A stretch of DNA of 21,723 bases from Candidatus Rokuibacteriota bacterium (lineage in GTDB: Bacteria > Methylomirabilota > Methylomirabilia > Rokubacteriales > CSP1-6): positions 1 to 21,723 of the forward strand of contig JACPCX010000114.1 of the NCBI GenBank assembly GCA_016184305.1, written 5' to 3'. The position numbers and the translations under genes are program-made. Shown piece after piece: positions 3,423 through 19,424 of the stretch (position 1 is its first letter; every line of letters begins with the position of its first letter). The notes under the pieces are model-generated. The model made no database searches. It was not told the DNA's origin and worked only from the letters and a program-made list of their open reading frames with translations.

Positions 3423-3650
3423 ATGCGGATCACGAGCAAGGGGCAGGTGACGATTCCGCTGGCCATTCGACGTAAGGCCGGGCTCTTGCCGGCGACCGAG
3501 GTGGAGTTCCACCTGCGGGGGCACACCGTCGTTCTTCGCAGAGCAAGGACCACCGGAAGGCGGGGCGGCCGCCTCCTGGATTCCATGCGAGGAAGGGCCA
3601 CCACCCGGCTGACCACCGACCAGATCATGGCCCTGACGCGCCCCCGGTAG
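3423..3650 (+). CDS. vapB: AbrB/MazE/SpoVT-family antitoxin (VapB)
   Basis: MRITSKGQVTIPLAIRRKAGL swapped-hairpin signature; GGGAGG RBS; directly upstream of a PIN toxin. Confidence 0.9.
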   Translation: MRITSKGQVTIPLAIRRKAGLLPATEVEFHLRGHTVVLRRARTTGRRGGRLLDSMRGRATTRLTTDQIMALTRPR

Positions 3651-3659
3651 ACCGGCCTC

Positions 3660-4064
3660 ATGCGCGAGATCCTCGTCGACAGCAACGTCATTCTCGACGT
3701 TGTGACGGAGGACACGACGTGGTTCGAGTGGTCATCGGGGCAGATCGCGCGCCTGGCCGAAGACCATGTGCTCGTGATCAATCCCATCGTGTACTCCGAG
3801 GTCTCGGTCGGCTTCGAGCGCATCGAGGAGGTCGACTCTGCGCTGCCGGTAGACTTCTTCCGGCGGGAAGCCCTGCCCTGGGAGGCGGCGTTCCTGGCGG
3901 CCAAGTGTTTCCTGAGATATCGGCGGGCGGGCGGCCGGAAGCGCTCTCCACTCCCCGACTTCTACGTGGGAGCCCACGCGGCGGTACGCGGACTGCCGCT
4001 CCTCACACGCGATGCGCGGCGCTACCGCACCTACTTCCCGAGGCTGACGCTGGTCGCGCCCTGA
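3660..4064 (+). CDS. vapC: PIN-domain ribonuclease toxin (VapC)
   Basis: ILVDSNV, YSEV, LPDFYVGAHA and LLTRD carry the PIN acidic residues; 134 aa. Confidence 0.92.
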   Translation: MREILVDSNVILDVVTEDTTWFEWSSGQIARLAEDHVLVINPIVYSEVSVGFERIEEVDSALPVDFFRREALPWEAAFLAAKCFLRYRRAGGRKRSPLPDFYVGAHAAVRGLPLLTRDARRYRTYFPRLTLVAP

Positions 4065-4212: not shown

Positions 4213-4551
4213 TCAAGCGCCCCGGACGCCGTTATCCTCCGCCGCAACCGGGGAGAGGGACTCTGCCGTGGACAGCGCGCGCGCCGCATCGAGCGTCCGG
4301 CCGGCGGCCAGGAGCGCGAGGACGTGGAGGCGCCGGCCTCGGGGCGTGGCGTGAAGACGGCACGCGGCGCCGGCCAGCCCGCACGCGTCAGGCCCGCGGC
4401 CGGCTTCGAGCGCCGCGCGCCCGGCCTCGCGGAGTTGCCAGGCCCGGGCCGCCACGCCCATGAGCGGGGCGAGGTCCGTCCCGCAGCGTGGGCACGCGCT
4501 CACGCCACGCCAGGGCGCGCGACAGGTGGGGCAGCGCAGGGGCTCGCTCAC
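4213..4551 (-). CDS. Small Zn-ribbon (CPTC-x9-CPRC) plus TPR-like helical protein, last gene of the Hsp70 operon
   Basis: MSEPLRCPTCRAPWRGVSACPRCGTDL followed by Ala/Leu-rich amphipathic helices; 16-nt G-rich gap after the Hsp70 stop. Confidence 0.75.
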   Translation of the reverse strand: MSEPLRCPTCRAPWRGVSACPRCGTDLAPLMGVAARAWQLREAGRAALEAGRGPDACGLAGAACRLHATPRGRRLHVLALLAAGRTLDAARALSTAESLSPVAAEDNGVRGA

Positions 4552-4567: not shown

Positions 4568-6487
4568 TCATCCTTCCTCGACGTAGAAGAGGAGGTCTGC
4601 CAGGTCGGCGGTGGCCGCGCGGAGCCTGTCCCAGTCCCCGCCGCTGATCGCCTTGTCGATCGCCTGCTGGAACATCACCGCCTCCTCGCGGTCCTCGGCG
4701 CTCATCCGGTCGTGGAGGCGGTGGCCCCGCTCGAGCAACGCGCGTGCCTCGGAGATCGAGACCCGTCGCTCGCGCTCGCCGCCGATCTCGTGCCCGGAGG
4801 ATCGGTCCCCGGCATCCGAGCGACGCCCGCGTTCGGTCTCGTCCGCGCGTCCGGCGGCGGGCCGGGATGAGCGACCGGCCGGAGCGGCCGGAGCCTCGGC
4901 GATGCCCGCGGCGTCGTCGACATCAGTGTCGTCGACATCGTCCTCGTCGAGGTCGGCCGGGGCGAGATTCTCGGCATCGCCGAAGAGGTTCAGCATGCGG
5001 CGCCGGGCTTCCGCGACCTGAGCGTCCGTCATCGCGGTCGTCGCGCCCTCGATGGTGATGTGCTTGGCGAGTCCGGTCCGCTTCTCGGTGGCCGTCACGC
5101 GCAGGATGCCGTCGAGGTCGAGATCCAGGCGGCAGAGGACCTCGTTGCCGGCGGGGACGGCCGAGAGCCCCTCGATCAGGAAGCGGCCGACCAGGATATT
5201 GTTGAGGGCGTTGGGATCGTCGCCCTGGTAGACGGACACCTGCCACGCCTCCTGGTTGTCGGCCATGGTGACATACGTGTCGGTCCGGCTGGCGGGGAAC
5301 GGCGTGTTGCGGGCGATGACCGGATGGTAGCAGTGCTCGGACGGCCGGCCGCCGAGGAGGCCGAAGTACGAGGGCCCGAACGAGTAGGGAGAGATGTCAA
5401 CGAGGACGCGGTCGATGTCGTGGCCGCCGAGGCGAGCGGCCAGCACGCCGGCCCCGAGGGCGACGCAGAGGTCGGGGTGAACCTCCTGGCGCGGGACCAG
5501 ACCCGTCTTCTCGCGCAGCAGCTCGGACAGAAGCGGCGTCCGGGTGGCGCCACCGACCAGCAGGATCTCGTCGACCTGATCGGGCTGCTTGCCGGCGTCG
5601 GCCAGGGCCCGGTGCACGCTGTCGAGCGTGCTCTCGACCAGGTGGCGGATCAGGCGCTCGTACTCCTCGCGCGACACCTCCAGGTCGAGGTGCACGGGCA
5701 CCCCGTCGCGCACGGCCAGATGCTCCTCCCTGAGGCGCGTGTAGGGCTCGAAGCTGAGCCGCTTCTTGGCCTCCTCGGCCGCGCGCAGGAGGCGGCTCAT
5801 CGCCCGGCGGTCGTCGCGGACGTCGGGGCCTCCGGTCGCGACGAACCGGGCGAGGACGAGGTCGAGCAGGAGCTGATCGAAATCGTCGCCGCCCAGGCGG
5901 TTATTGCCGTGGCTCGCGAGGACCTCGGTCACGTCGCCGGAGACCTGCACGAGGGACACGTCGAACGTGCCGCCGCCCAGGTCGTAGACCAGCACGGTGC
6001 GGTCGCCCTCGCGATCGGAGCCGTAGGCGAGCGCCGCCGCCGTCGGCTCGTTGAGGATGCGCACGACCTCGAGGCCCGCGATCTCGCCGGCGTCGCGGGT
6101 GGCCTGGCGCTGAGCGTCCGAGAAGTAGGCGGGCACCGTGATCACCGCCCGGCGCACCGGCGCGCCGAGCACTGCCTCGGCCCGGGCCTTGAGGGCGCGC
6201 AGGATCATCGCCGAGATCTCCGGCGGCGAGTACGTCGGCCCGCCCATGGCGACGCGCTCGCCGGAGCCCATCAGCCGCTTGATCGACTTGACGGTCCGCT
6301 CGGGATAGATCACGTATTGGTTGCGGGCCGGGGTGCCGACCAGCGGCGTGCCGTCGGGCGAGAGCCCCACGAACGAGGGCATGATCTGCTCGCCGTCGGC
6401 GGCGAGCACCTGGACATTGCCGTCCACGAGCGCCGCCACCTCGGAGTTCGTCGTCCCCAGATCGATCCCGACGATCACGTCAGCCAT
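4568..6487 (-). CDS. Hsp70 family chaperone, divergent DnaK paralog (639 aa)
   Basis: GIDLGTTNS, SIKRLMG, TVPAYF, RILNEPTAAA, YDLGGGTFDVS, LGGDDFD, LVGGATRTP, DNQ...VYQG. Start is ATG 6487 (MADVIVG), overlapping the grpE stop. Confidence 0.95.
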   Translation of the reverse strand: MADVIVGIDLGTTNSEVAALVDGNVQVLAADGEQIMPSFVGLSPDGTPLVGTPARNQYVIYPERTVKSIKRLMGSGERVAMGGPTYSPPEISAMILRALKARAEAVLGAPVRRAVITVPAYFSDAQRQATRDAGEIAGLEVVRILNEPTAAALAYGSDREGDRTVLVYDLGGGTFDVSLVQVSGDVTEVLASHGNNRLGGDDFDQLLLDLVLARFVATGGPDVRDDRRAMSRLLRAAEEAKKRLSFEPYTRLREEHLAVRDGVPVHLDLEVSREEYERLIRHLVESTLDSVHRALADAGKQPDQVDEILLVGGATRTPLLSELLREKTGLVPRQEVHPDLCVALGAGVLAARLGGHDIDRVLVDISPYSFGPSYFGLLGGRPSEHCYHPVIARNTPFPASRTDTYVTMADNQEAWQVSVYQGDDPNALNNILVGRFLIEGLSAVPAGNEVLCRLDLDLDGILRVTATEKRTGLAKHITIEGATTAMTDAQVAEARRRMLNLFGDAENLAPADLDEDDVDDTDVDDAAGIAEAPAAPAGRSSRPAAGRADETERGRRSDAGDRSSGHEIGGERERRVSISEARALLERGHRLHDRMSAEDREEAVMFQQAIDKAISGGDWDRLRAATADLADLLFYVEEG

Positions 6488-7430
6488 GGGATTCTCCCGT
6501 TGCCGCCGGCGGATTGCCGGCGACCTTGACCTCGGCAAAACGGAGCACCCTGCCATCGGCGGTGTAGCCCGGGCGGAACACCTCGAGCACCGTTCCCGCT
6601 GATGCCGCGGGGGTGGCCGCCACCTCCACCGCCCGCATTACCCGCGGGTCGAACGGCTTGCCCAGGGATGGGATCTCGTGGACGTCGAGCCGCTGGAGCG
6701 CGTCGTCGAGCCGCTCGAGCGCGAGCCCGTTGCCCTCGACCAGCGCCTCGAGCACGGGACGCTGCCCGAAGCGCGCCCGGAGCCCGCGGAGCCCGGCCAG
6801 CCGGCGGCGGGCCTCCTCGAGCCCGCGCGTGAAGCGATCGCGCACCTCCAGCAGCTCGGCCACCAGCTCGAGCCGCGCCTCGCGCCGGGCCTCGGCGAGC
6901 TTCTTCGCGACGGCATCCGGACTGCTGACACTCTCGGCGAGACGCGTGAGCGCTGCGCCGAGCTCGGCGTGCAGGCGATTGGTGGCGCGGCCCTGGAGCT
7001 GCGTCTCGCGGGTCAGCGCGGCGAGCTGGGCCAGCAGCGAGAACAGATCGGGGACCTGCTCGGGAGCCGGCATCGCCTCGGGCGCGAGCCCAGGAGGCGG
7101 CGGTTCCGCCTCGTCCAGCTCGTCGAGCCACGCCACGACCGACTCCAGGAAGACGCGGCGGCGCTCGGGATCGCGCAGGCTTGCGGGGCGACGTTCACCG
7201 GGGCCGCTCGCGGGACTCGTCGTCTCCTCTCGCTCTGCGACTGGGTCGGCCCGGCCCTCGTGATCGCTCGCCTCGTGCTGCGGCCCACTCGCGTCTGAGG
7301 GCGTGAAGGAATCGGCGCGTGGAATCTCGGTGAAGGGTGGTGGCTGGGGGAGTCCGAGCGGGGCGACGACCCCTTCGAACGAGCAATCCGGCGCCGCTCC
7401 CTCCGACGTTGACTCCCTCGACTCGCTCAT
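6480..7430 (-). CDS. grpE: GrpE-like nucleotide exchange factor with long N-terminal extension
   Basis: LLEVRDRFTRGL, GKPFDPRVMRAV and VLEVFRPGY..GRVLRFAEVKV match the GrpE helical bundle and beta domain; ATGA overlap with the J-domain gene. Confidence 0.88.
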   Translation of the reverse strand: MSESRESTSEGAAPDCSFEGVVAPLGLPQPPPFTEIPRADSFTPSDASGPQHEASDHEGRADPVAEREETTSPASGPGERRPASLRDPERRRVFLESVVAWLDELDEAEPPPPGLAPEAMPAPEQVPDLFSLLAQLAALTRETQLQGRATNRLHAELGAALTRLAESVSSPDAVAKKLAEARREARLELVAELLEVRDRFTRGLEEARRRLAGLRGLRARFGQRPVLEALVEGNGLALERLDDALQRLDVHEIPSLGKPFDPRVMRAVEVAATPAASAGTVLEVFRPGYTADGRVLRFAEVKVAGNPPAATGESHG

Positions 7431-7717
7431 GACCGGTCACCCCGAAGGACGTCGAGCCACGGGCCCGGGCCGACGTGGCGCCGCTCGTCCGGCATCGCGT
7501 CGAGAAGCGCCTCCAGGCGGTCGAGCGGCGCCGGACCGAACAGCCGTAGCGCGAGGCGGCGCTCCTCGTCACGCACGGCCTCGTAGGCCTCGCGGATGCG
7601 CCGGAATCCCTCCGGGTCGCGGTCGGGCGGCGAGCGCCGGACCGCCGCCAGATAGGCGGCACGCACGGTGTCGTCGTCCGCCATCTCCTCGATCCCGAGC
7701 ACCGCGAACGGGTTCAC
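7427..7717 (-). CDS. Minimal J-domain (DnaJ-like) protein with PPD in place of HPD
   Basis: MNPFAVLGI...VRAAYLAAVRRSPPDRDPEGFRRIREAYEAV is the J-domain helix I-III pattern; 96 aa; GTGA overlap with the upstream gene. Confidence 0.85.
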   Translation of the reverse strand: MNPFAVLGIEEMADDDTVRAAYLAAVRRSPPDRDPEGFRRIREAYEAVRDEERRLALRLFGPAPLDRLEALLDAMPDERRHVGPGPWLDVLRGDRS

Positions 7718-10161
7718 GGGTTCTTCTCCAGGAAGGCGAGGAAGTCGTCAAACAGGTCTCGCTGCGGCCATCGTGGCGCCCGCCGCCGCTTGCGCCGCGC
7801 CTTCTCGGCCGTGAAGGTGGGCACCTGCCGGTGCGCGCGCTCGGCCGTGACAAGCCGCGCGATTTCCACCGTCGTCAGTGGCTCCATGTCAGCGACCGGC
7901 ACGGGCGGGGCCCAGGGAGCGGTGTCGGGCGAGCGCGCGAGGGCGTCGATCCCGGACGAGGCCTCGCGCACGGCGTCCATGTCGCGCGCGCGGCCGGCCA
8001 GCTCGCGCGCGGCACGCAGGCAGAGCGCGGCACGGTCGCGATCGCGACGCGACGCGGCGGCCGAGAGCGCGCGGCCACGCGCGAGGAGAAAACGGTGGAG
8101 CAGGGGCCCATCGCCGGCGAGCCCCTCCCCGGAGGCGGCGTAGGTCAGGGCCGGCCGGCCCATGTGGAGCCCGCCGACGCACAGCGAGTGAAGATCGGCG
8201 GGAGCAGCGCCGCTGAGGTCACGTTCGACCCGGGCAAGCAGGGCCGGTGGCACGGCGAGGGGGCGATCCAGCGCGCGAAACAGGTCACCCGAGCGGGCCA
8301 GCGCCTGGACGGTCTCGGCCGGCGAGGCCGGATCGGGCGCGTCGGGCGGCGGCTCGAGCCCGAACGACTCGGCCACCGACGACAAGATCAACGCGAGCAT
8401 CGTGGGGTTCCCGAGCCGTGACGCCAGCTCCTCGTGCAGCCGCACGGCGGCGGCCCCGTCGCCGTTCCGGCGCGTCGCCACCGACCGGACCGCGCCGAGA
8501 TATGCCGAGGTGTCACCGCTCGTCGCGACCGGCTCCTTCTCCAGGCGGTCGAGATCAGCCAGGGCGAGCGCGAACCGGCCTTCCCGGATCCGTCGCTCCG
8601 CGCTGGCGAGGAGCAGCCGGAAGCGGCTCTGCCGCACCTCGGGGTGCACCCGGTTGATCGCCTCGGCGAGGTCGAGCAGGTCGAGCGCCTTCCGGTGGGC
8701 GCCGCGCCGCTCGGCCGCGCGCACCAGGTGCAGCAGCGGCTCCAGGTCCCGCGGGTGCGCCTGCCGCCACGCTTCGGCCAGGGCCTCCGCCTGCCGGGGG
8801 TCGCGCGTCTCCCAGTGCGCGACGAGCGCCTGAAACACGCGCGGATCGGGATCGGCCTGGCGCGCGCGTGCCAGGAGACGGCCGCGGTCGACCCACTCCG
8901 GAAGCTCGCCGTCCCGGACCAGCGCCTCGAGCTCCTCCTCGGAGTCGACCTCGAACGTGTCGAGCACTTCCGCGCGATCGGCCGGGAACAGCTCGGCCAT
9001 GTGCAGAAGGACGCGCGACGGCGCGCGCCCCGCCGCGAGCAGGGTGCCGGCGCGAATCGCGGCCATGAGGTAGGCGTCCCAGGAGATGAGCGCCTCCTCC
9101 CACGCCCCCGCGCGCTCCAGCGTGAGGGCGATCAGCCGCTGCGTTTCGCGCTGCCAGTCGAGGTTGCGCCGGTCCCGGCGCAATGCCTCGATCAGGGGCT
9201 TGAGATTCAGGTTCAGCCGATACCAGTGCTGGAGCACCGTGGCCGTGAAGATCCGCTTGACTGGCACAGGCTCGAAGTCGAACAAGGGCATGATGCGCTC
9301 GACGGCGGCGACCGCAGTCCGCGGATCCCTCGCCTCGAGCGCGCGGCCGAGGCGCAGCAGGTGCTGCCGGAGCAGGGTCCGCCCCCCGCTGACGGCCCTG
9401 ATCAAGGCACCGACTGCGGGCGATCGCTGATCCAGCGCCCCGGGCTCTCCGATCAGATGACGCAGCACGGGCACGAGCCGCGCCGGGGCGGCGTGCGGCG
9501 GAATCGCATCGAGATTGGCGAGCGCCACGCCGTCCGCGCGCCGGTAGTACGCGTCGAGCGCCCGGATCAGGAGCTTCCATGGCGCCAGCGGCGAGTGACG
9601 CGAGACCTGGTCCAGGGCGGCGAGGGCGCCGTCGGGCAAGGGGCCGCTCGTCACCGCGGCGAACAGGTCACACACCGCCCGCGCGGCGCGCCGCAGTGGC
9701 TCGTCGGCGGCCAGCGCGTCAGCGTCGGCAAGCAGGCGTGGGTCCCGGAGCTCCCGCGTCAGGATCGCTTCGATCTCCTGCCGGCGCGGCCGGGCGGCCG
9801 CCGCCAGCTCCGCCAGGAGCGGCCGGAGGTCGCCGGCGGCGATCGCCTTGCTCTGGCGCACGAGCGGCACGATGCGGTGGCGGTGTGCCGGGAACCGCTC
9901 GCCGACGAGCGCGGCCAGCGCCGTCGCCTCGTCGTACAGGCCCTGCGCGAGCATCTCGCCGATGCGCGCCTCGTAGGCGGCGATGACGAGCGCCTCGGCC
10001 TCGGTGCTCCGCGCCTCCTTGAAGAATTGCTTGGCGAGGTCGAGCGCCCCCCGCGTGTTGCCGGAGGCGATCAGGGATTCGACGCGAACCCGTGACTCCC
10101 CGGGACTCGTGAGGGGCTGGACCGGCCGGTGATGGGATGGGCGCTTGTCACGTTTGCTCAT
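7714..10161 (-). CDS. Large all-helical, TPR-like hypothetical protein (815 aa), first gene of the Hsp70 operon
   Basis: Long ORF of Ala/Leu/Arg-rich amphipathic helices (e.g. ALDLLDLAEAINRVHP, ALADLDRLE); AGGAG RBS before ATG 10161; stop overlaps the J-protein start. No recognisable catalytic motif. Confidence 0.8.
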   Translation of the reverse strand: MSKRDKRPSHHRPVQPLTSPGESRVRVESLIASGNTRGALDLAKQFFKEARSTEAEALVIAAYEARIGEMLAQGLYDEATALAALVGERFPAHRHRIVPLVRQSKAIAAGDLRPLLAELAAAARPRRQEIEAILTRELRDPRLLADADALAADEPLRRAARAVCDLFAAVTSGPLPDGALAALDQVSRHSPLAPWKLLIRALDAYYRRADGVALANLDAIPPHAAPARLVPVLRHLIGEPGALDQRSPAVGALIRAVSGGRTLLRQHLLRLGRALEARDPRTAVAAVERIMPLFDFEPVPVKRIFTATVLQHWYRLNLNLKPLIEALRRDRRNLDWQRETQRLIALTLERAGAWEEALISWDAYLMAAIRAGTLLAAGRAPSRVLLHMAELFPADRAEVLDTFEVDSEEELEALVRDGELPEWVDRGRLLARARQADPDPRVFQALVAHWETRDPRQAEALAEAWRQAHPRDLEPLLHLVRAAERRGAHRKALDLLDLAEAINRVHPEVRQSRFRLLLASAERRIREGRFALALADLDRLEKEPVATSGDTSAYLGAVRSVATRRNGDGAAAVRLHEELASRLGNPTMLALILSSVAESFGLEPPPDAPDPASPAETVQALARSGDLFRALDRPLAVPPALLARVERDLSGAAPADLHSLCVGGLHMGRPALTYAASGEGLAGDGPLLHRFLLARGRALSAAASRRDRDRAALCLRAARELAGRARDMDAVREASSGIDALARSPDTAPWAPPVPVADMEPLTTVEIARLVTAERAHRQVPTFTAEKARRKRRRAPRWPQRDLFDDFLAFLEKNP

Positions 10162-10234
10162 GCCGCGCTCCTGGCTCCTGCGCCGGCCGGCCTCGGGATC
10201 CGATTCCCCCGCGCCCGGCGTCGGGAATCCCCGC

Positions 10235-10264
10235 ATTATGGGGTCGAAGGCGCCACCTTGTCTA
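10235..10264 (-). promoter_or_regulatory. Candidate sigma70-type promoter of the Hsp70 operon
   Basis: Minus strand TAGACA (10264-10259), 18 nt, CATAAT (10240-10235), followed by a GATTCCC...GGGAATC inverted repeat (10202-10229) in the leader. Confidence 0.5.
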
Positions 10265-10365: not shown

Positions 10366-10719
10366 CTACGGCAGGCGCTCGTAGAGGACGTGCCGGCGGT
10401 TCTTCGTGTACGGCCTCACCTGCCCCGGCCAGCGCCCGCGGTCCACGGCTGCCGCCCAGGCCTCGCTCGTGAGCACTGCGGGGCTCTCGAGCTCGTAGAG
10501 CGCGTTGTAGCGCGGCTCGTTCTCGATGACGATGGTCTTGCGCTCCCCGCCGATCACCATGGTCAGCTCCCGCGTCTTGAAGCGCGCCACCGAGATGACG
10601 CCGGGCACCGTGACGAGCAGGGGCACGTGCTCGGTGTCGTACACCTCGTTGAAGAGCGCCTCCTGGGCGGGCTCGACGTCCATGGCGGCGCTGAAGAGAT
10701 AGCGACCTTGTATCGGCAT
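10366..10719 (-). CDS. Small dimeric alpha/beta-barrel (EthD/DUF4286-like) hypothetical protein
   Basis: MDVEP..EALFNEVYDTEHVPLLVTVPGVISVARF...PRYNALYELES pattern; AGGAGGAG RBS. Confidence 0.7.
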   Translation of the reverse strand: MPIQGRYLFSAAMDVEPAQEALFNEVYDTEHVPLLVTVPGVISVARFKTRELTMVIGGERKTIVIENEPRYNALYELESPAVLTSEAWAAAVDRGRWPGQVRPYTKNRRHVLYERLP

Positions 10720-10747: not shown

Positions 10748-11533
10748 CTACGGGCCGCTCGCCCCGGACGGCGGATAGAAGCGCGCCTCGCGCTTCTCGT
10801 CCCAGGCCCGGTTGGCCTCGCGGATCTCCCACGAGGCCATGCAGTCGTTCTGAGCCCGGATCACCGCCTCGATCAGGGCGCGCGGATCGGCGTGGAATGA
10901 CTCGTGGAGGAGCCGCTTGGCATGGCCCGTGGCCGTGCGGGAGGCGTGGAAGGCCTTCTCGACGATGGCGGCCAGCTCGGCGTCCAGGCGCTCGGCCGGG
11001 ACGACCCAGTTGACGAGCCCGATGGCGCGCGCCTCCTCCGCGGCGATGTGGTCGTTCAGCAGCGTCAGCTCCTTGGCCCGCCCGAGCCCGATGAGGCGGG
11101 CGAGCCGCAGGATCGAGCCGTCCGGGATCAGCCCGTGCCGCGTCGCCCCCAGCCCCAGCACGGTGTCCGTCGCCGCAAGGCGCACGTCACAGGCCACGGC
11201 CAGCTGCAGCCCGCCCCCGATGGTGTAGCCGTGCAGTACGCCGATCACCAGCTTGTCCATGTCCTCCAGCGCGTTCAGCGCCCGGACCCAGTGGCGGACG
11301 AAGGGCTCGGCGATCTGGCCCGCGGACAGCGCCGTGCGGTCCATGCCGGAGCAGAAGGCCCGCCCGGCCCCGCGCACCACCACCACCCAGACGTCGCGGT
11401 CGCGGGCGGCGGCCTCGGCGGCGTCGGCCAGCTCGGCCGCCAGCCCCGTGTGCAGCGCGTTGAGCACCTCCGGGCGGCTGAGCACGATGGTGCCCACGCC
11501 GTCCTTCACCCCGTAGAGAACGTTCCCGCTCAC
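10748..11533 (-). CDS. Enoyl-CoA hydratase/isomerase (crotonase) family protein
   Basis: LSRPEVLNAL, GRAFCSGMD, TIGGG, GLIPDG, AKELTL, GLVNWVV. Confidence 0.88.
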   Translation of the reverse strand: MSGNVLYGVKDGVGTIVLSRPEVLNALHTGLAAELADAAEAAARDRDVWVVVVRGAGRAFCSGMDRTALSAGQIAEPFVRHWVRALNALEDMDKLVIGVLHGYTIGGGLQLAVACDVRLAATDTVLGLGATRHGLIPDGSILRLARLIGLGRAKELTLLNDHIAAEEARAIGLVNWVVPAERLDAELAAIVEKAFHASRTATGHAKRLLHESFHADPRALIEAVIRAQNDCMASWEIREANRAWDEKREARFYPPSGASGP

Positions 11534-11552
11534 CGGACCGTATCCCCTGCGC

Positions 11553-12695
11553 CTAGACGCCCAGGATCTCGCGCGCGATCACCATCCGCTGCACCTCGGA
11601 GGTCCCCTCGCCGATCTCGGTGAGCTTGGCATCGCGGAAGATCCGCTCGATGGGAAACTCGGTGATGTAGCCGGCCCCACCGTGGATCTGGAGGGACTTG
11701 GTGGCGGCCCGCATGGCGACCTCGGACGCGAAGACCTTGGCCATGGAGGCGGCGAGCTTGGCGGGCTTCCCCGCGTCCTTGAGAAGCGCCGCGCGGAGCG
11801 TGAGCAGCCGCGCCGCCTCGATCTCCGTGCCCATGTCGGCCACCATGCCCTGCAGCCCGTTGAACTCCGCCAGTGTCTTGCCGAAGGCGCTGCGCTGCTT
11901 CATGTAGCGGAGCGCCTGGTCGAGCGCGCCCTGGGCGATTCCGACCGCCATCGCCGCCATGGCGATGCGGCCGCCCTCCAGCACCTGCATGCAGTTGACG
12001 AAACCCTGATGGAGCGTGCCGCACAGCTGGCGCTCGGGCACCCGCACGTTGTCGAGGATCAGCTCGGCCGTGTTGGAAGCGTGCAGCCCGAGCTTCTTGT
12101 AGGGGGTCCCCGCGCCGAAGCCCGGCGTCCCCTTCTCGAGGATGAAGGCCGAGATGCCCTTGTTGCCCCGCGCCGTATCGGTCACCGCCATCACCACGGC
12201 GATCCGGCCCACGCTCGCGTTGGTGATGAAGGCCTTGGTGCCGGTGAGGACGAAGTGATCGCCCTCGCGGACGGCGCGGGTCTTCATGGCGGCGGCATCC
12301 GACCCCGACCCGGGCTCCGTCAGACCCCACGCTCCCAGCGACCCGCCGCGGGCGAGCTCGGGGAGGTACTGCGCCTTCTGCTCCCTCGATCCGAAGAGGG
12401 CGATGTGGTTGGCGCAGAGCGAGTTGTGGGCCCACATGGTGATCCCGACGGAGGCATCCACGCGGTTCAGCTCCTCGACGGCCAGCGCGTAGGAGACGTA
12501 GTCGAGCGCCGCCCCCCCGTACTCCTCGGGCACGAGGGCGCCCAGGAGCCCCGTCGTCCCCAGCTTCCGGAGGATCTCGTGGGGGAACTCCTGCCGCTCG
12601 TCGAACTCCCGGATCACCGGCGCGACTTCCCCCTCGGCGAAGTCCCGCGCCATGGCGCGGATCTCCTTCTGCTCCGGTGTCAGCTCGAAGTCCAT
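11553..12695 (-). CDS. Acyl-CoA dehydrogenase (short/branched-chain type)
   Basis: [43 protein letters not shown], catalytic Glu in IGEGTSEVQ. Confidence 0.95.
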
Positions 12696-12743
12696 CTCAC
12701 CCTGCCATGCCTGGCCCCCCGCTCTCGCCCTGACGACGGGCGC

Positions 12744-13148
12744 CTAGACCGACGCCCGGATATTGTCCCGGACGAAGCGGATGATGTCCTGCGTCGAGGT
12801 GCCCGGCGTGAACAGCTCCTTGACGCCCAGGGCTTTGAGCGCCTGGACGTCCTCCTGGGGGATGATCCCGCCACCGAAGACCGCGATGTCGCCAGCCCCC
12901 TTCTCGCGCAGGAGCTCGAGCACCCTGGTGAAGAGGAAGTTATGGGCGCCCGAGAGCACGCTGAGCCCGACGGCGTCCACGTCCTCCTGGACCGCCGTGG
13001 CCGCGATCTGCTCGGGCGTCTGGTGGAGCCCCGTGTAGATCACCTCGAACCCCGCATCCCGGAGCGCGCGCGCGACGATCTTCGCCCCGCGGTCGTGCCC
13101 GTCGAGCCCCGGCTTCGCCACCAGCACCCGTACCTTGCGCTCGGTCAT
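12744..13148 (-). CDS. Cobalamin-binding small subunit of an acyl-CoA mutase (IcmB / MCM C-terminal domain type)
   Basis: [10 protein letters not shown] (DxHxxG), SVL and GGG B12-binding motifs; FTPGT. Confidence 0.95.
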
Positions 13149-13160
13149 GCGTCCTCCGCG

Positions 13161-13571
13161 CTACTTGAGCAGGCCCCGGAGCCGCTCGCCGACCTTCATG
13201 ATCTGGTCCCGGTTGCCGGGCGTGGGCGTCCAGTCGAAGCCCTTGCCGTCGCCGTTCCATCGGGGGATCAGGTGCATATGAAAATGGGGCACCGACTGAA
13301 AGGCCGCCGGCCCGTTGGCCTGCAGCAGGTTGAGTCCGTCCGGCTTGAGAACCTGCTGGATGGCCAGGGCGACCTTCCTCGCGGCGGCGATGGCCGCCTG
13401 GAGGTCCTCCACCTCGGCCTCGAAGAGGCTCGGCGCATGGGCCTTGGTCACGACCAGACAGTGACCGGAATTGACCGGGTTGATGTCCATGATCGTCAGC
13501 GTGCGGCCGTCCTCGAAGATCTTCATCGAGGGAATCTGCCCGTCGCGGATCCTGCAGAAGACGCAGTCCAT
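13161..13571 (-). CDS. HIT (histidine triad) family nucleotide hydrolase, Hint-like
   Basis: N-terminal CVFC, DINP..GH and VPHFHMHLIPR (HxHxH). Confidence 0.93.
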   Translation of the reverse strand: MDCVFCRIRDGQIPSMKIFEDGRTLTIMDINPVNSGHCLVVTKAHAPSLFEAEVEDLQAAIAAARKVALAIQQVLKPDGLNLLQANGPAAFQSVPHFHMHLIPRWNGDGKGFDWTPTPGNRDQIMKVGERLRGLLK

Positions 13572-13577
13572 GGCCCC

Positions 13578-14645
13578 CTAGACCTCGAGGGTCCAGCCGT
13601 GGGGATCGGGCGCCTGCCCGTACTGGATCCCCACGATGGCGTCGTAGAGCCGCTGGGTCAGCGGGCCGATCTTGCGGCCGTTGATGACCAACTCCTCGCC
13701 CTTGTAGGCAAGCTCGCCCACGGGTGAGATGACGGCCGCCGTTCCGGTGCCCCACACCTCGGCCAGCGTCCCCGCGCGGTGGGCGGCCATGACCTCGTCG
13801 ATCCCCACCTGGCGCTCGCTCGCCCGAAGCCCCCAGTCGCGCAGCAGCGTCAGGACCGAGTCCCGCGTGACGCCGGGGAGGACCGTCCCCGTGAGCGGCG
13901 GCGTGATCACCTCGTCGCCGATCTTCACCATGATGTTCATGGTGCCGACCTCGTCGATGTACCGCCGGTGCACACCGTCCAGCCACAGCACCTGGGTGAA
14001 GCCCTGGTGCTTCGCGTCCTCCCCGGCCATGAGGCTCGCGGCGTAATTGGCGCCCGTCTTGGCCCCGCCCAGACCGCCCTCGACCGCCCGCACGTAGCGC
14101 TCCTCGACCCGGATCTTGACCGGCGCCATGCCCTCCGGATAGTACGCGCCCACCGGGGAGAGGATCACGAAGTAGATGTAGGACCTGGCGGGGCGGACGC
14201 CGAGGAAGGCTTCGCTCGCGATGATGGTGGGGCGGATGTAGAGCGACGTGCCGAGCATGCGCGGCACCCACTCCCCGTCGGTCCGGACCACCGTCACGAT
14301 GGACTGAAGCGCCAGCTCGGGATCGAGCGGAGGGATGCACATGCGCCGGGCCGAGTTGTTCAGGCGCTCCACGTGCTTCTGCGGCCGGAACAGCCGGAGC
14401 TTGCCGTCCACGCCGCGGAAGGCCTTGAGCCCGTCGAACACCGCCTGGGCGTAATGGAGGACGGCCGCCGCCGGATCCAGGGGGATCGGCGCGTAGGGCT
14501 CGACCCGCGGGTCGTACCAGCCCTTCTCTTCCTGGAAGTTGGCGACAAACATGTGGTCGGTGAAGATGATTCCAAAGCCGAGATCCGAGTCCTTCGGCTT
14601 CTTCTTGAGCGTCGGCGCCTTCGTGATCCGGATAGGCTCAGACAT
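13578..14645 (-). CDS. ilvE: Branched-chain amino acid aminotransferase (PLP fold IV)
   Basis: FTDHM, LHYAQAVFDGLKAF, LYIRP, AKTGANY (PLP Lys), EVGTMN, LPGVTR, GTAAVISPVG. Confidence 0.95.
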   Translation of the reverse strand: MSEPIRITKAPTLKKKPKDSDLGFGIIFTDHMFVANFQEEKGWYDPRVEPYAPIPLDPAAAVLHYAQAVFDGLKAFRGVDGKLRLFRPQKHVERLNNSARRMCIPPLDPELALQSIVTVVRTDGEWVPRMLGTSLYIRPTIIASEAFLGVRPARSYIYFVILSPVGAYYPEGMAPVKIRVEERYVRAVEGGLGGAKTGANYAASLMAGEDAKHQGFTQVLWLDGVHRRYIDEVGTMNIMVKIGDEVITPPLTGTVLPGVTRDSVLTLLRDWGLRASERQVGIDEVMAAHRAGTLAEVWGTGTAAVISPVGELAYKGEELVINGRKIGPLTQRLYDAIVGIQYGQAPDPHGWTLEV

Positions 14646-14673
14646 CCTCAGGGTCTCCTTGTGATCGTCCCGC

Positions 14674-16341
<1,668 letters not shown>

Positions 16342-16354
16342 ACGCTCCCCTCGC

Positions 16355-17512
16355 TCAGTGGACCGCCGTCGGGCCGGCCAGCAGGTGACGGGCGATCACC
16401 AGCTTCTGGATCTGCGAGGTCCCCTCGTAGATCTGGGTGATCTTCGCGTCCCGGAAGTAGCGCTCCACCTGGTAGTCCCTGATGTAGCCGTAGCCGCCAT
16501 GGACCTGGATGGCGTCCGTGGTCACGCGCATGGCGGCCTCGGAGGCGAAGAGCTTCGCCATGGCCGCCTCGGTGCCGAACGGCGCGCCCGCGTCCTTGAG
16601 TGCGGCGGCGCGCCAGATGAGCAGGCGGGCCGCGTCGATGGCGGTGGCCATGTCGGCCAGCATCCACTGCACCATCTGGTGCTGGCCGATCGGCACGCCG
16701 AAGCTCTTCCGCTCTCGGGCGTAGGCCAGCGACAGCGTGTAGGCGCCGGCGGCGATGCCGAGGGCCTGGGCGGCGATCCCGATGCGCCCGCCGTCGAGCG
16801 TGGCCATGGCGATCGTGAAGCCCTCCCCCTCCTCGCCGAGGCGGTTGGCGACGGGCACGGGGCAGTCGTCGAACACGAGCTCGGCGGTGTCCGAGGCGCG
16901 GATGCCGAGCTTGTCCTCGACCTTCGCCACGAGGAACCCCCGGGTCCCCTTCTCGACCAGGAAGGCGCTGATCCCGTGGTGGGCCTTGGCCCGATCCGTC
17001 TGGGCGAAGACCAGCGCGACGTCAGCCTCGCGGCCGTTGGTGACGAAGATCTTGCGACCGGTTACCCGGTAGACGTCGCCGTCGCGGACGGCCAGCACGT
17101 TCTGGTTCCTCGCGTCGGAGCCGGCCTCGGGCTCGGTGAGGGAGAAACAGCCAAGCTTCTGACCCATTGCTGCCGGGGCGAGAAAGCGCCGCTTCTGCTC
17201 CTCCGTGCCGAACTTGTAGACGGGGTCGCAGTACAGCGAGTTGTTGACCGACATGATGACGGCGTGGGACGCGCAGGCCCTGGCGACCTCCTCGAGTGCC
17301 AGCGCATAGGCCACGGTGTCGCCACCGCTGCCGCCGTACGCCTCGGGGATGGCGATGCCCATCAGCCCGAGCGTGCCCATCCGCCGCACCGTCTCGTGCG
17401 GGAAGCGGGCCTCGCGATCGATGATCTCGGCGATGGGACGCACCTCTTTCTCCGCGAACTCGCGCGCCACCGCCTGGATCATCCGCTGCTCGTCGCTCAG
17501 CTCGATGTTCAT
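16355..17512 (-). CDS. Acyl-CoA dehydrogenase (butyryl-CoA/short-chain type)
   Basis: [55 protein letters not shown] 17512 follows AGGTGA; GTG 17521 is an alternative start. Confidence 0.95.
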
Positions 17513-17611
17513 GTCTTTCACCTGGGGCGGACGCCCGGGCTGTCGCCCGCCCGCCCCCGCCGGATCCTCGGGTCCCGCTCATGCACCCACGCGGCGTCAG
17601 CCGCCGTCAGC

Positions 17612-17632
17612 CCGGGCGGACAACCCGCCCGG
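17612..17632 (-). other. GC-rich stem-loop directly after the etfA stop
   Basis: CCGGGCGG-acaac-CCGCCCGG, 8-bp stem with no U-tract, so more likely an mRNA stability or pause hairpin than an intrinsic terminator. Confidence 0.4.
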
Positions 17633-17634
17633 TG

Positions 17635-18624
17635 CTATTTCTCCAGGAGCTTCTTGAACTCCTGGGTCAGGAGCGGGGCGATCTCGAACAGGTCGGCCAC
17701 GATGCCGTAGTCGGCGATCTTGAAGATCGGCGCCTCCGGATCCTTGTTGACGGCGCAGATCACCTTGGAGGTCCGCATCCCCGCCAGGTGCTGGATGGCG
17801 CCCGAGATGCCGAACCCCAGGTAGAGCTTGGGCGAGACGGTGCGCCCCGTCTGGCCGATCTGGAAGCGGTGCGGCCGCCAGCCGGCGTCCACAGCCGCGC
17901 GCGAGGCCCCGACGGCGGCGCCGATCACCCTGGCGAGCTCCTCCAGGATGGCGAAGTTCTCGGGCCCCTTCATCCCGCGGCCGCCGGAGACGATGACCTC
18001 CGCCTCCGCCAGCTCCGGCAGCCCCGTGGAGGCCTCCTCGCGGCGCTCCACCAGCTTCATCTGCTCCGCCGGCAGGCTAACCGCCGGCCGCTCCACCGCG
18101 GGCGCAGCGCCGGCCTGCGGGTCCTCGGCGCGGAAGACATTGGGCCGGAGCGTGGCGAGCCACGGCGTCTTCGCCCACGTCACCTTTGCCAGGAGCTTGC
18201 CCGCGTAGATGGGCCGCGTCGCCACGAGCCGGTCCCCATCGAGGACCAGGGCCGTGGAATCGGCCGCCAGTCCTGTCCCGAGACGCGCGCCCAGCCGCGC
18301 CAGCAGCTCGCGCTGACGGGCCGTGACGGCTCCGAGAATGGCCTTCGGCGACTCCTTGGCCGCGAGCTCCGCCACCACCGGGGTCCACACCTCGCCCCGG
18401 TACGGCGCGAAGGCCGCGCTCTCGAGGAGCCACACCCGCTTGGCGCCCCACTCGGCGAGCAGCTTGAGGCCCGCCTCCGTGGCCTTGTCCGTCAGCCACA
18501 CCGCCTCGGCCTGGCCGCCGGCCTGGGCCGCCAGCCGCGCGGCCTCCCCCAGCACCTCCGCGGTCACCTTCTTCGGGTTACCCTGCCTGTCGTCTTCAAC
18601 GATGCACCAGAACGCACCCGCCAT
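17635..18624 (-). CDS. etfA: Electron transfer flavoprotein alpha subunit
   Basis: Start ATG 18624 (MAGAFW) after [50 protein letters not shown]. Confidence 0.95.
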
Positions 18625-18644
18625 GGTTTCTCGTCTCCTGGTAG

Positions 18645-19424
18645 TTAGATTGCTTTGGCGTCTTCGCGGAGCGCGCGCACGAGCTCCCGGGCCGCTTCGG
18701 CCGGCTCGCCGGGGATGATCCGCCCCGGCGGCCTCGGCGGAAGCATCTCGAGGGCCACCACCGACAAGGCGGGCGGCTCGGCGGCGAGCCCGAGGTCCGC
18801 GGCCTTGACGTCCTTGACCTCCTTCTTCTTCGCACCCATGATGCCCTTCAGCGTCGGGTAGCGCGGCTCGTTGAGCCCCTTCTGCGCCGACACGACGGCG
18901 GGCAACGGCAGGTCGAACACCTCGATCCCGCCCTCCATCTGGCGCCCGACTCGGATCGACGTCCCGCCGGCATCCACGGCCTCCTCCATGATCCACGAGG
19001 CGCAAGGCCAGCCAAGCACCTCGGCCACCTGTGCCCCCACGGAGCCCATGTCGTCGTCGATGGCCTGCCGCCCGCACAGCACCAGCGCCGGCGCCTCCTG
19101 CTTGATCACCGCCGCGAGGGCGCGGGCCGTGGTCAGGGTGTCGCCCCTGTCCCACGCCGGATCCAGGAGATGGATGGCCCGGTCGCAGCCCATCGCCAGG
19201 CACGACCGCAGCGTCTCCTTGACGCGATCGGGTCCCAGGGACACCGCGACCACCTCGCCCTGGCCCCGCTTCTCCTTGATGCGCAGCCCTTCCTCCACGG
19301 CGTACTCGTCGTACGGCGAGACGATCCACGTGATCCCGGCCGTGTCGATGGCCTTGGGATCGGCGCCGATCTTCACCTGCGTCGCCGTGTCCGGCACCTG
19401 TTTCACCATCACCAGTATCTTCAT
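18645..19424 (-). CDS. etfB: Electron transfer flavoprotein beta subunit
   Basis: Start ATG 19424 (MKILVMVKQVPD); PYDEYAVEE, GRQAIDDD, NEPRYPTLKGIM. Confidence 0.95.
   Translation of the reverse strand: MKILVMVKQVPDTATQVKIGADPKAIDTAGITWIVSPYDEYAVEEGLRIKEKRGQGEVVAVSLGPDRVKETLRSCLAMGCDRAIHLLDPAWDRGDTLTTARALAAVIKQEAPALVLCGRQAIDDDMGSVGAQVAEVLGWPCASWIMEEAVDAGGTSIRVGRQMEGGIEVFDLPLPAVVSAQKGLNEPRYPTLKGIMGAKKKEVKDVKAADLGLAAEPPALSVVALEMLPPRPPGRIIPGEPAEAARELVRALREDAKAI

Follow-up and report, generated by a model that had tools for sequence, protein, structure and literature searches.

A conserved tryptophan at the DnaK V436 position of an HscC-type Hsp70 encoded in a five-gene chaperone cassette of a Candidatus Rokuibacteriota bacterium

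Position V436 in the substrate pocket of Escherichia coli DnaK is the site that is mutated to a bulky aromatic residue to weaken substrate binding (DnaK V436F; V461F in BiP), and the KD of DnaK V436F for good peptides is raised 40-fold (Mayer 2021, PMC8215388). What, then, would an Hsp70 bind that carries tryptophan at this site by nature? The question is raised by a 21,723-nt stretch of DNA, hereafter the window, from a Candidatus Rokuibacteriota bacterium (assembly GCA_016184305.1, contig JACPCX010000114.1), which has a G+C content of about 70% and encodes such an Hsp70 within a five-gene cassette. A sequence-only reading of the window had proposed that the substrate pocket is remodelled by the tryptophan and an 8-residue loop insertion, and that the protein is not a general foldase but recognises a specific motif or binds its client in a non-canonical way. 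The comparisons described here lead us to favour, with moderate confidence, a dedicated chaperone whose pocket 0 is shallow.

The Hsp70 open reading frame occupies 4568-6556 on the minus strand. Its probable true start is M24 at 6487, with which the N-termini of homologues coincide, and all residue numbers are counted from M24. The gene comprises the following parts:

4568..6487, minus strand: HscC-type Hsp70, 639 aa from M24 (Pfam HSP70 and homologue N-termini)
5423..6487, minus strand: nucleotide-binding domain (NBD), residues 1-355 (alignments; ATPase motifs and the 284-295 'GrpE signature' segment are kept)
5027..5422, minus strand: substrate-binding beta-sandwich, residues 356-487 (AlphaFold2 pLDDT 96-98; root-mean-square deviation, rmsd, of 1.0-1.5 Å to solved Hsp70 substrate-binding domains, SBDs)
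5318..5374, minus strand: beta1-beta2 (L1,2) hairpin with an 8-residue insertion, PSYFGLLGGRPSEHCYHPV (HMMER, MAFFT, AlphaFold2 model)
5243..5245, minus strand: codon of Trp415, at the DnaK V436 position (alignment, homologues, contigs of other studies)
4793..4939, minus strand: low-complexity linker, residues 517-565, predicted to be disordered, at the place of DnaK lid helix B (AlphaFold2 model)
4571..4792, minus strand: predicted C-terminal three-helix bundle, residues 566-639, ending in LLFYVEEG (AlphaFold2 helices, pLDDT 96-98)

Membership in the Hsp70 family follows from a 459-bit match to Pfam HSP70 (PF00012; gathering cut-off 20.6) over profile positions 1-510 of 599. The protein scored below the cut-offs of the canonical DnaK equivalogs in the NCBIfam scan (NF001413, 491 vs 648; TIGR02350, 482.6 vs 822.55) and of the HscA equivalog TIGR01991 (390.2 vs 708.55). 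Its ATPase motifs are intact, as the sequence-only reading had stated: in a MAFFT alignment with E. coli DnaK, HscA and HscC it keeps DLGTTNS, the K70 position, VITVPAYF.DAQRQAT.DAG, NEPTAAA, VYDLGGGTFDVS and LVGG.TR.P. DnaK residues 76-101 are missing from the NBD, since the HMMER match to the structure 2kho goes from DnaK residue 75 straight to 103, with which MAFFT concurs; this deletion is common to many non-proteobacterial DnaKs (Mayer 2021, PMC8215388). The close homologues are mostly 595-631 aa long. Over 103 full-length ones, picked by SBD similarity, the NBD and the beta-sandwich are nearly equally conserved (84% and 83% mean identity), and a single residue accounts for at least 95% of the sequences in 218/355 NBD columns and in 81/132 columns of the sandwich with its hairpin. 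Mean identity to close homologues falls to 9% in the linker at 517-565.

The motif TMADNQEAWQVSVYQG is found in the protein, with Trp415 encoded by codon 5243-5245 on the minus strand (TGG on the coding strand). HMMER aligns residues 387-443 without gaps to residues 408-464 of E. coli DnaK (chain 2kho_A) and equates W415 with V436, M408 with A429, Y405 with F426, V417 with I438 and P372 with I401. The L1,2 segment has 19 residues compared with 11 in DnaK, an insertion of 8 residues (3+5). The MAFFT alignment supports both the equivalences and the insertion, so that the residue assignments of the sequence-only reading (Trp at V436, Met at A429, Pro at I401) and its loop length were correct. Alanine stands at the position of the DnaK latch residue R467, in this protein and in all 121 sequences of the close-homologue set described below. 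The equivalents of I438, V440 and D148, relay residues between pocket and ATPase, are kept (for I438 and V440 this role is described in Mayer 2021, PMC8215388), as are those of D431-N432-Q433 in the region of the cleft that forms hydrogen bonds with the peptide backbone.

Both features could in principle be sequencing or assembly errors, or signs of a decaying gene, a reading whose probability we consider negligible and for which no support was found. In a set made up of the 120 best SBD homologues (77-95% identical) and the query, Trp is present in 117/121 sequences, with Cys in three and Ala in one; a pattern match found the same loop length in 119/120 homologues, and P372, S373, H385, C386 and Y387 are invariant (121/121). 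Trp also occurs in 18/20 metagenome loci, the other two having C or A. Contigs from four runs of four studies cover codon 5243-5245 with zero listed differences and have no indel in 5100-5500; one of the four is almost the same as this DNA and could be where it originated, which leaves three further studies. A search for RNA evidence listed 20 runs, none of them of RNA. The frame is open and the NBD highly conserved. An artefact is thus excluded by the homologues, the metagenome loci and the contigs of the further studies, and the tryptophan is neither a one-off substitution nor a sequencing error, the two doubts that the sequence-only reading itself had raised. These comparisons support the view that both the residues and the insertion are genuine and subject to selection.

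The insertion and the tryptophan differ in their spread. A search of 1.84 billion representatives yielded 150 relatives, 135 of them with the SBD aligned. L1,2 is at least 4 residues longer than that of DnaK in 84/135, mostly by 8, and Trp is found in 5/135 only, the remainder having V, I, A, C, M or L. Among the 84 insertion-bearing representatives the V436 site is occupied by V in 47, I in 16, A in 11, W in 5, C in 3 and M and L in one each, and none of the 50 representatives with a loop of DnaK length has an aromatic residue there. In a FastTree tree of 119 sequences the Trp clade (SH-like support 0.94) consists of 13 leaves, 10 with W, one with C, one with A and one fragment. It is nested in a 68-leaf insertion-bearing clade (support 0.94), apart from the group that contains HscC, and whether the insertion bearers form a single clade depends on the root. 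Since the insertion is widespread and the Trp clade lies inside it, the insertion appears to be old and the tryptophan, by its place in the tree, is a later trait that defines a sub-clade. Among 401 genomes of the phylum of a metagenome-assembled genome (MAG) labelled Chloroflexi, close W-type proteins were found only in that MAG (E up to 1e-22), together with three distant relatives, at a strict threshold that gives no prevalence figure. No description of a natural Trp at the V436 site was found in the openly readable full-text literature.

How much of this pocket is peculiar to the protein? HscC-type Hsp70s are characterised by a 4-8 residue L1,2 insertion, a matching deletion in helix B and the absence of the GrpE signature (Mayer 2021, PMC8215388, after Kluck 2002). 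The present protein has the insertion (8 residues), the NBD deletion of DnaK residues 76-101 and a loss of helix B, in whose place a disordered linker is predicted; the Pfam match extends to position 510/599 only, and the loss goes beyond the 9-residue deletion of HscC. It departs from the type in its length (639 aa, compared with 550-580 aa) and in its relation to GrpE: unlike HscC and HscA, it has a 284-295 segment of full length, and in each of the loci the start of its gene is overlapped by a GrpE gene. HscC (YbeW) of E. coli K-12 shares the L1,2 insertion, the shortened or altered lid helix B, the lack of DnaK 76-101, Tyr at F426, Met at A429, and YQG and NNILV; it also has private J partners (DjlB/DjlC) and TPR-like proteins in its locus (Sel1/TPR-like YbeQ, YbeT). 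The two proteins are 38% identical and fall into separate clades of the tree. They differ in the insertion (8 residues here, 4 in HscC), in the residue that corresponds to V436 (Trp in the cassette protein, Ile in HscC), in length (639 and 556 aa), in the 284-295 segment and own GrpE kept here while HscC is thought to be GrpE-independent, and in the J partner, which is 96 aa long with PPD here and 480 aa long with HPD in HscC. The sequence-only reading presented the loop insertion, Met at A429 and the Pro change as novel remodelling, but the insertion and Met at A429, like Tyr at F426, are known HscC hallmarks (Mayer 2021, PMC8215388; alignment with E. coli HscC). Most of the listed features thus belong to the HscC signature; the tryptophan is the new element and, judged from these alignments, the only special one in the pocket.

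The structure prediction proposed in the sequence-only reading was carried out with AlphaFold2 for residues 355-639 (alignment of 109 sequences, mean pLDDT 82.6). The beta-sandwich has the canonical Hsp70 substrate-binding fold in this model, which superposes on Kar2 (3h0x) with an rmsd of 1.0 Å over 114 residues (Z 20) and on peptide-bound DnaK (1dky) with 1.5 Å over 118 residues; human HSP70 (4po2) and the BiP V461F structure 6hab are also among the fold matches. Trp415 (model residue 61) lies within strand E60-67 of the sandwich at pLDDT 96-98, on the same strand and in the same register as V417 and V419, which correspond to I438 and V440 of DnaK. This register suggests that the indole would fill pocket 0. 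The hairpin strands run through residues 370-378 and 381-387 (model E16-24 and E27-33) with a turn at G379-G380, so the insertion extends both strands and would not form a floppy loop. A short helix A at 488-502 follows the sandwich, the linker has pLDDT below 50 at model residues 163-204 and 209-211, and the helices of the bundle are found at model residues 212-236, 243-262 and 265-284 (566-638 of the whole protein). Fold matches that include the DnaK lid have an rmsd of about 18 Å; the bundle is thus placed unlike the DnaK lid in the model.

Candidate clients of the Hsp70 are encoded beside it. In operon order the cassette consists of the TPR-like, J-domain, GrpE-like, Hsp70 (fourth) and zinc-ribbon genes, and the partners of the Hsp70 are:

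7714..10236, minus strand: 840-aa TPR-like alpha-solenoid protein, cassette gene 1, probable start M26 at 10161 (ESM Atlas neighbours, synteny)
7427..7717, minus strand: mini J-domain protein of 96 aa, of which a conserved tail makes up 34 (Pfam DnaJ, 32.8 bits vs cut-off 27.8)
7622..7630, minus strand: PPD at the HPD site of the J-domain (BLASTP places P30-P31-D32 on DnaJ H33-P34-D35)
6480..7430, minus strand: 316-aa GrpE-like nucleotide exchange factor, with a long extension at the N-terminus (Pfam GrpE over residues 163-304, 84.4 bits)
4213..4551, minus strand: 112-aa zinc-ribbon plus helical protein, last cassette gene (CPTC...CxRC)

The TPR-like protein matched no Pfam family above cut-off (the top one was TPR_19, E 0.019). 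Its nearest ESM Atlas clusters are TPR proteins or unnamed proteins of 865-914 aa, its own ESM Atlas record begins at residue 26, and its gene precedes the J gene in every locus long enough to tell. An hhalign comparison detected no similarity of it to E. coli DjlC or YbeQ (probabilities 0.3 and 0.1). The J protein aligns with residues 7-76 of E. coli DnaJ (BLASTP E 1e-11) and thus fits the profile of the domain without having its HPD motif; PPD is found instead in 17/17 cassette orthologues, 119/120 database homologues (one has SPD) and 49/49 metagenome loci. The 34-aa tail that follows the domain is conserved as ERRHVGP..WL.VLR. All four cysteines of the zinc-ribbon protein are invariant (16/16), its Pfam zinc-ribbon matches are weak (E 0.019-0.09), and its gene follows that of the Hsp70 in all 20 metagenome loci reaching that far. 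The TGA stop of the TPR-like gene overlaps the GTG start of the J gene (GTGA), the J stop overlaps the GrpE start (ATGA), the end of the GrpE gene and the beginning of the Hsp70 gene share 8 nt (ATGGCTGA), and the Hsp70 and zinc-ribbon genes are 16 nt apart. All five genes are spanned in 17/21 genome loci, in the same order in 17/17, the others being cut by contig ends; 20/64 metagenome loci, found via the TPR protein, span all five, again in the same order (20/20). On this evidence of gene order and overlaps, the cassette is a private, translationally coupled five-gene chaperone operon. No description of it was found in the openly readable full-text literature.

The genome has further chaperones of this family. 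In the 3.2-Mb assembly (89% complete), another contig encodes a canonical DnaK (881 bits to PF00012) next to a J-protein, a canonical GrpE-DnaJ pair is found elsewhere, and a second Hsp70, which is HscA-like, also comes with a J-protein of its own. The cassette Hsp70 is thus the third of the genome and the cassette GrpE its second. Its status as a third Hsp70 beside a canonical DnaK, GrpE and DnaJ, the missed equivalog cut-offs and the dedicated cassette together make it likely that the protein is not a general foldase, as the sequence-only reading had put it. One part of that argument did not hold. E. coli HscC, by peptide-library scans, binds a rather broad set of peptides, driven mostly by positive charge and without preference for Leu (Mayer 2021, PMC8215388), so that the insertion by itself is no sign of narrow specificity; the present protein may recognise a specific motif or bind in a non-canonical way.

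We hypothesize that the cassette encodes a private chaperone machine composed of a TPR-like scaffold, a mini J-protein without the histidine, its own GrpE, the HscC-type Hsp70 and the zinc-ribbon/helical protein. In this machine the ATP/GrpE cycle would operate and Trp415 would occupy pocket 0 as Phe does in DnaK V436F, with the consequence that Leu-centred peptides of the DnaK type would be bound poorly. The SBD would instead clamp a segment whose residue at position 0 is small, Pro/Gly or cationic. This segment would most probably belong to the TPR scaffold, to the zinc-ribbon protein or to one client that the scaffold presents, and the longer hairpin may assume part of the covering role of the lid. 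There is a precedent in the HscA-HscB-IscU system. HscA, likewise specialised, has a larger side chain (Met433) at the V436 site and a shallower pocket, and it recognises a single Pro-centred motif in a single client, whose gene lies in the same operon and which a small J-protein dedicated to this task delivers (Mayer 2021, PMC8215388). HscA differs from the cassette Hsp70 in its L1,2 of DnaK length, its lack of a GrpE and its J-protein with a normal HPD, and this genome has a separate HscA-like gene. A prediction of the complex of Hsp70 residues 355-639 with the zinc-ribbon protein scored 0.00 twice, without controls, and counts neither way.

Several observations weigh against a dedicated chaperone of this kind. 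The tryptophan can be replaced, by C or A in 4/121 homologues and 2/20 loci. Three Chloroflexota loci (L145, L146, L147) have a GrpE-like gene immediately upstream of an HscC-like Hsp70 with the same +8 hairpin and carry Ala, Val and Ala, respectively, at the pocket site, the L146 and L147 proteins sharing 52-54% identity with the query across about 495 residues; moreover, V, I and A prevail at this site among the 84 insertion-bearing representatives (47, 16 and 11). The broad, charge-driven binding of E. coli HscC, with its 4-residue insertion and Ile, means that HscC-type architecture is no proof of a single client. With a J-protein that lacks the catalytic His, even a normal J-driven cycle is not assured, and the occlusion of the pocket is deduced from strand register. 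The idea that the Trp pocket is coupled to the His-less J-domain was considered and rejected because in L145 a J-domain without the His (TPE; Pfam DnaJ 41.3 bits) occurs together with an Hsp70 that has Ala in the pocket.

Some of these observations give weight to a possible though rather unlikely alternative, in which the protein is a broad HscC-like holdase or foldase without a dedicated client and the tryptophan tunes on and off rates or modestly shifts the preference, for example to basic peptides. It would agree with the binding behaviour of E. coli HscC, with the lability of the pocket residue across the insertion-bearing clade and with the fact that W-to-C and W-to-A variants retain the cassette. 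It fits less well with the strong conservation of the sandwich and its hairpin and with the strict co-inheritance with two non-chaperone proteins. The distribution is also patchy, the TPR protein being present in 10/251 genomes of the phylum (4/104 high-quality ones) and in 2/4 of the genus, and an accessory, task-specific module fits this better than general proteostasis.

Alternatively, the pocket may be functionally closed and the Hsp70 may act as an ATP-driven switch or as an Hsp110- or Ssz1-like co-chaperone for the canonical DnaK or the TPR scaffold. DnaK V436F and BiP V461F have a large aromatic residue at the same pocket-floor position and bind peptides weakly (for V436F, Mayer 2021, PMC8215388), and the BiP V461F structure is among the fold matches. 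These are laboratory loss-of-binding mutants with a canonical full lid, whereas the tryptophan of the cassette protein is natural, conserved and accompanied by a long hairpin and the absence of helix B. The loss of lid helix B and of the latch partner R467 (Ala in 121/121) would be in line with a closed pocket, as would the J-protein without the catalytic His, and a 2026 review has proposed that DnaK-derived paralogues may be DnaK co-chaperones (PMC13580251). Replacement of the HPD His abolished the stimulation of ATPase activity in every tested system (Mayer 2021, PMC8215388). An own GrpE and a J-like protein would, however, be superfluous for a mere co-chaperone acting like a nucleotide exchange factor, and the equivalents of D431-N432-Q433 as well as the relay residues are kept, so we regard a closed pocket as unlikely.

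The dedicated-chaperone reading can be extended to a more specific and equally unlikely proposal, in which the Trp pocket and the hairpin would be built to recognise a single short element, centred on Pro/Gly or Arg, within one of two cassette partners, the TPR scaffold or the zinc-ribbon protein. The five genes would then be an ATP-driven assembly/disassembly switch, a bacterial counterpart of Hsc70-auxilin-clathrin, with a J-domain that works without its 'essential' histidine; the patchy spread across phyla would suggest that it might serve a conflict- or stress-triggered function. The C-terminus of the Hsp70 might contribute to the contact with the scaffold. In eukaryotes, the C-terminal EEVD motif of Hsp70 and Hsp90 is bound by TPR co-chaperones. 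The cassette Hsp70 has an acidic, near-invariant end, which reads LLFYVEE followed by one more residue in almost all close homologues, and a TPR-like partner, and by analogy alone this end (LLFYVEE, 4571-4594, minus strand) could be a docking motif for TPR-like partners; unlike EEVD, it is the end of a helix within the three-helix bundle of the model. Related ends, ILFYLE and LLYFVE, are seen in more distant insertion-bearing relatives.

The distribution of the cassette also bears on a role in conflict or defence, in which the Hsp70 would be an NTP-driven thresholding or assembly component, as proposed for GTPase-Hsp70-GrpE systems. The GTPase-centred conflict systems (Kaur, Burroughs, Iyer, Aravind 2020, PMC7159879) resemble the cassette in their accessory Hsp70, own GrpE and J/TPR components in the neighbourhood. 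The patchy occurrence within the phylum (10/251) is in keeping with such a role. The same holds for the near-identical architecture across the MAGs that make up the 21 genome loci, labelled Rokubacteria, Binatia, Methylomirabilia, Deltaproteobacteria and Chloroflexi, and for the duplication of the 5.9-kb cassette in one genome, where the two copies (L007:3317-9233 and L008:3316-9204) lie about 25 kb apart on one contig with 98.1% DNA identity as a discrete unit with unmatched flanks. A toxin-antitoxin pair adjoins the cassette here, and the genes around it are:

3423-3650, plus strand: MazE/AbrB-type antitoxin (Pfam MazE_antitoxin, 28.4 bits)
3660-4064, plus strand: PIN-domain VapC-like toxin (Pfam PIN, 44.8 bits)
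10366-10719, minus strand: 117-aa ORF without clear family, upstream of the cassette (weak EthD match, E 0.0053)
10748-19329, minus strand: acyl-CoA metabolism block with enoyl-CoA hydratase and two acyl-CoA dehydrogenases
14674-16341 and 12744-13148, minus strand: large subunit and B12-binding subunit of a split methylmalonyl-CoA-mutase-type enzyme

The VapBC-like pair lies just downstream of the cassette in convergent orientation and is not conserved at the other loci. Neighbour clustering of 22 loci found no conserved neighbour beyond the five genes, and no GAP1-N2 or other TRAFAC GTPase, FNIII protein or effector was found among the ORFs of the window by family scans or conserved beside the cassette; a GTPase-centred conflict system was therefore rejected. 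PADLOC gave only two weak matches, PDC-M61B (E 5e-05, in the NBD) and MkoB (E 0.0033, in GrpE), which we do not take as membership, and the cassette is flanked by ordinary genes of acyl-CoA metabolism. A conflict or defence module thus appears very unlikely to us. Myxococcus SglK/GrpS was likewise discarded as a model, SglK being of the DnaK type (PRK00290) and complementing an E. coli dnaK mutant (PMC8265645).

Some further observations concern the surroundings and the carriers. The 117-aa ORF recurs at its site only in the closest loci (L005 and 5/64 metagenome loci). HIT and class IV aminotransferase genes lie between the two mutase subunits, and the acyl-CoA block includes a 564-aa protein whose C-terminal 320 residues correspond to ETF and ETF-alpha domains. 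The cassette is also carried by MAG records titled Enterobacteriaceae or Klebsiella pneumoniae (L011, L013, L017), bins that look mis-assigned; L017 is near-identical to the locus of a 'Deltaproteobacteria' MAG (L018). All carriers found are uncultured.

Our results add a pocket analysis in which the loop is recognised as an HscC hallmark, the tryptophan as specific to a sub-clade and the pocket-floor residue as variable among related lineages. At the site that is mutated in the laboratory to a bulky aromatic residue, nature has fixed an even larger one in a clade that keeps the ATPase, the allosteric relay, a GrpE and a J-like partner. The protein is thus a natural system for asking how pocket 0 sets client specificity and what role the long L1,2 hairpin of the HscC type has once the lid helix is gone, and together with the PPD J-protein it raises the question of whether the canonical HPD histidine is indispensable for an Hsp70 cycle. 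As a defined cassette with candidate clients encoded alongside, it offers a tractable entry point to these questions.

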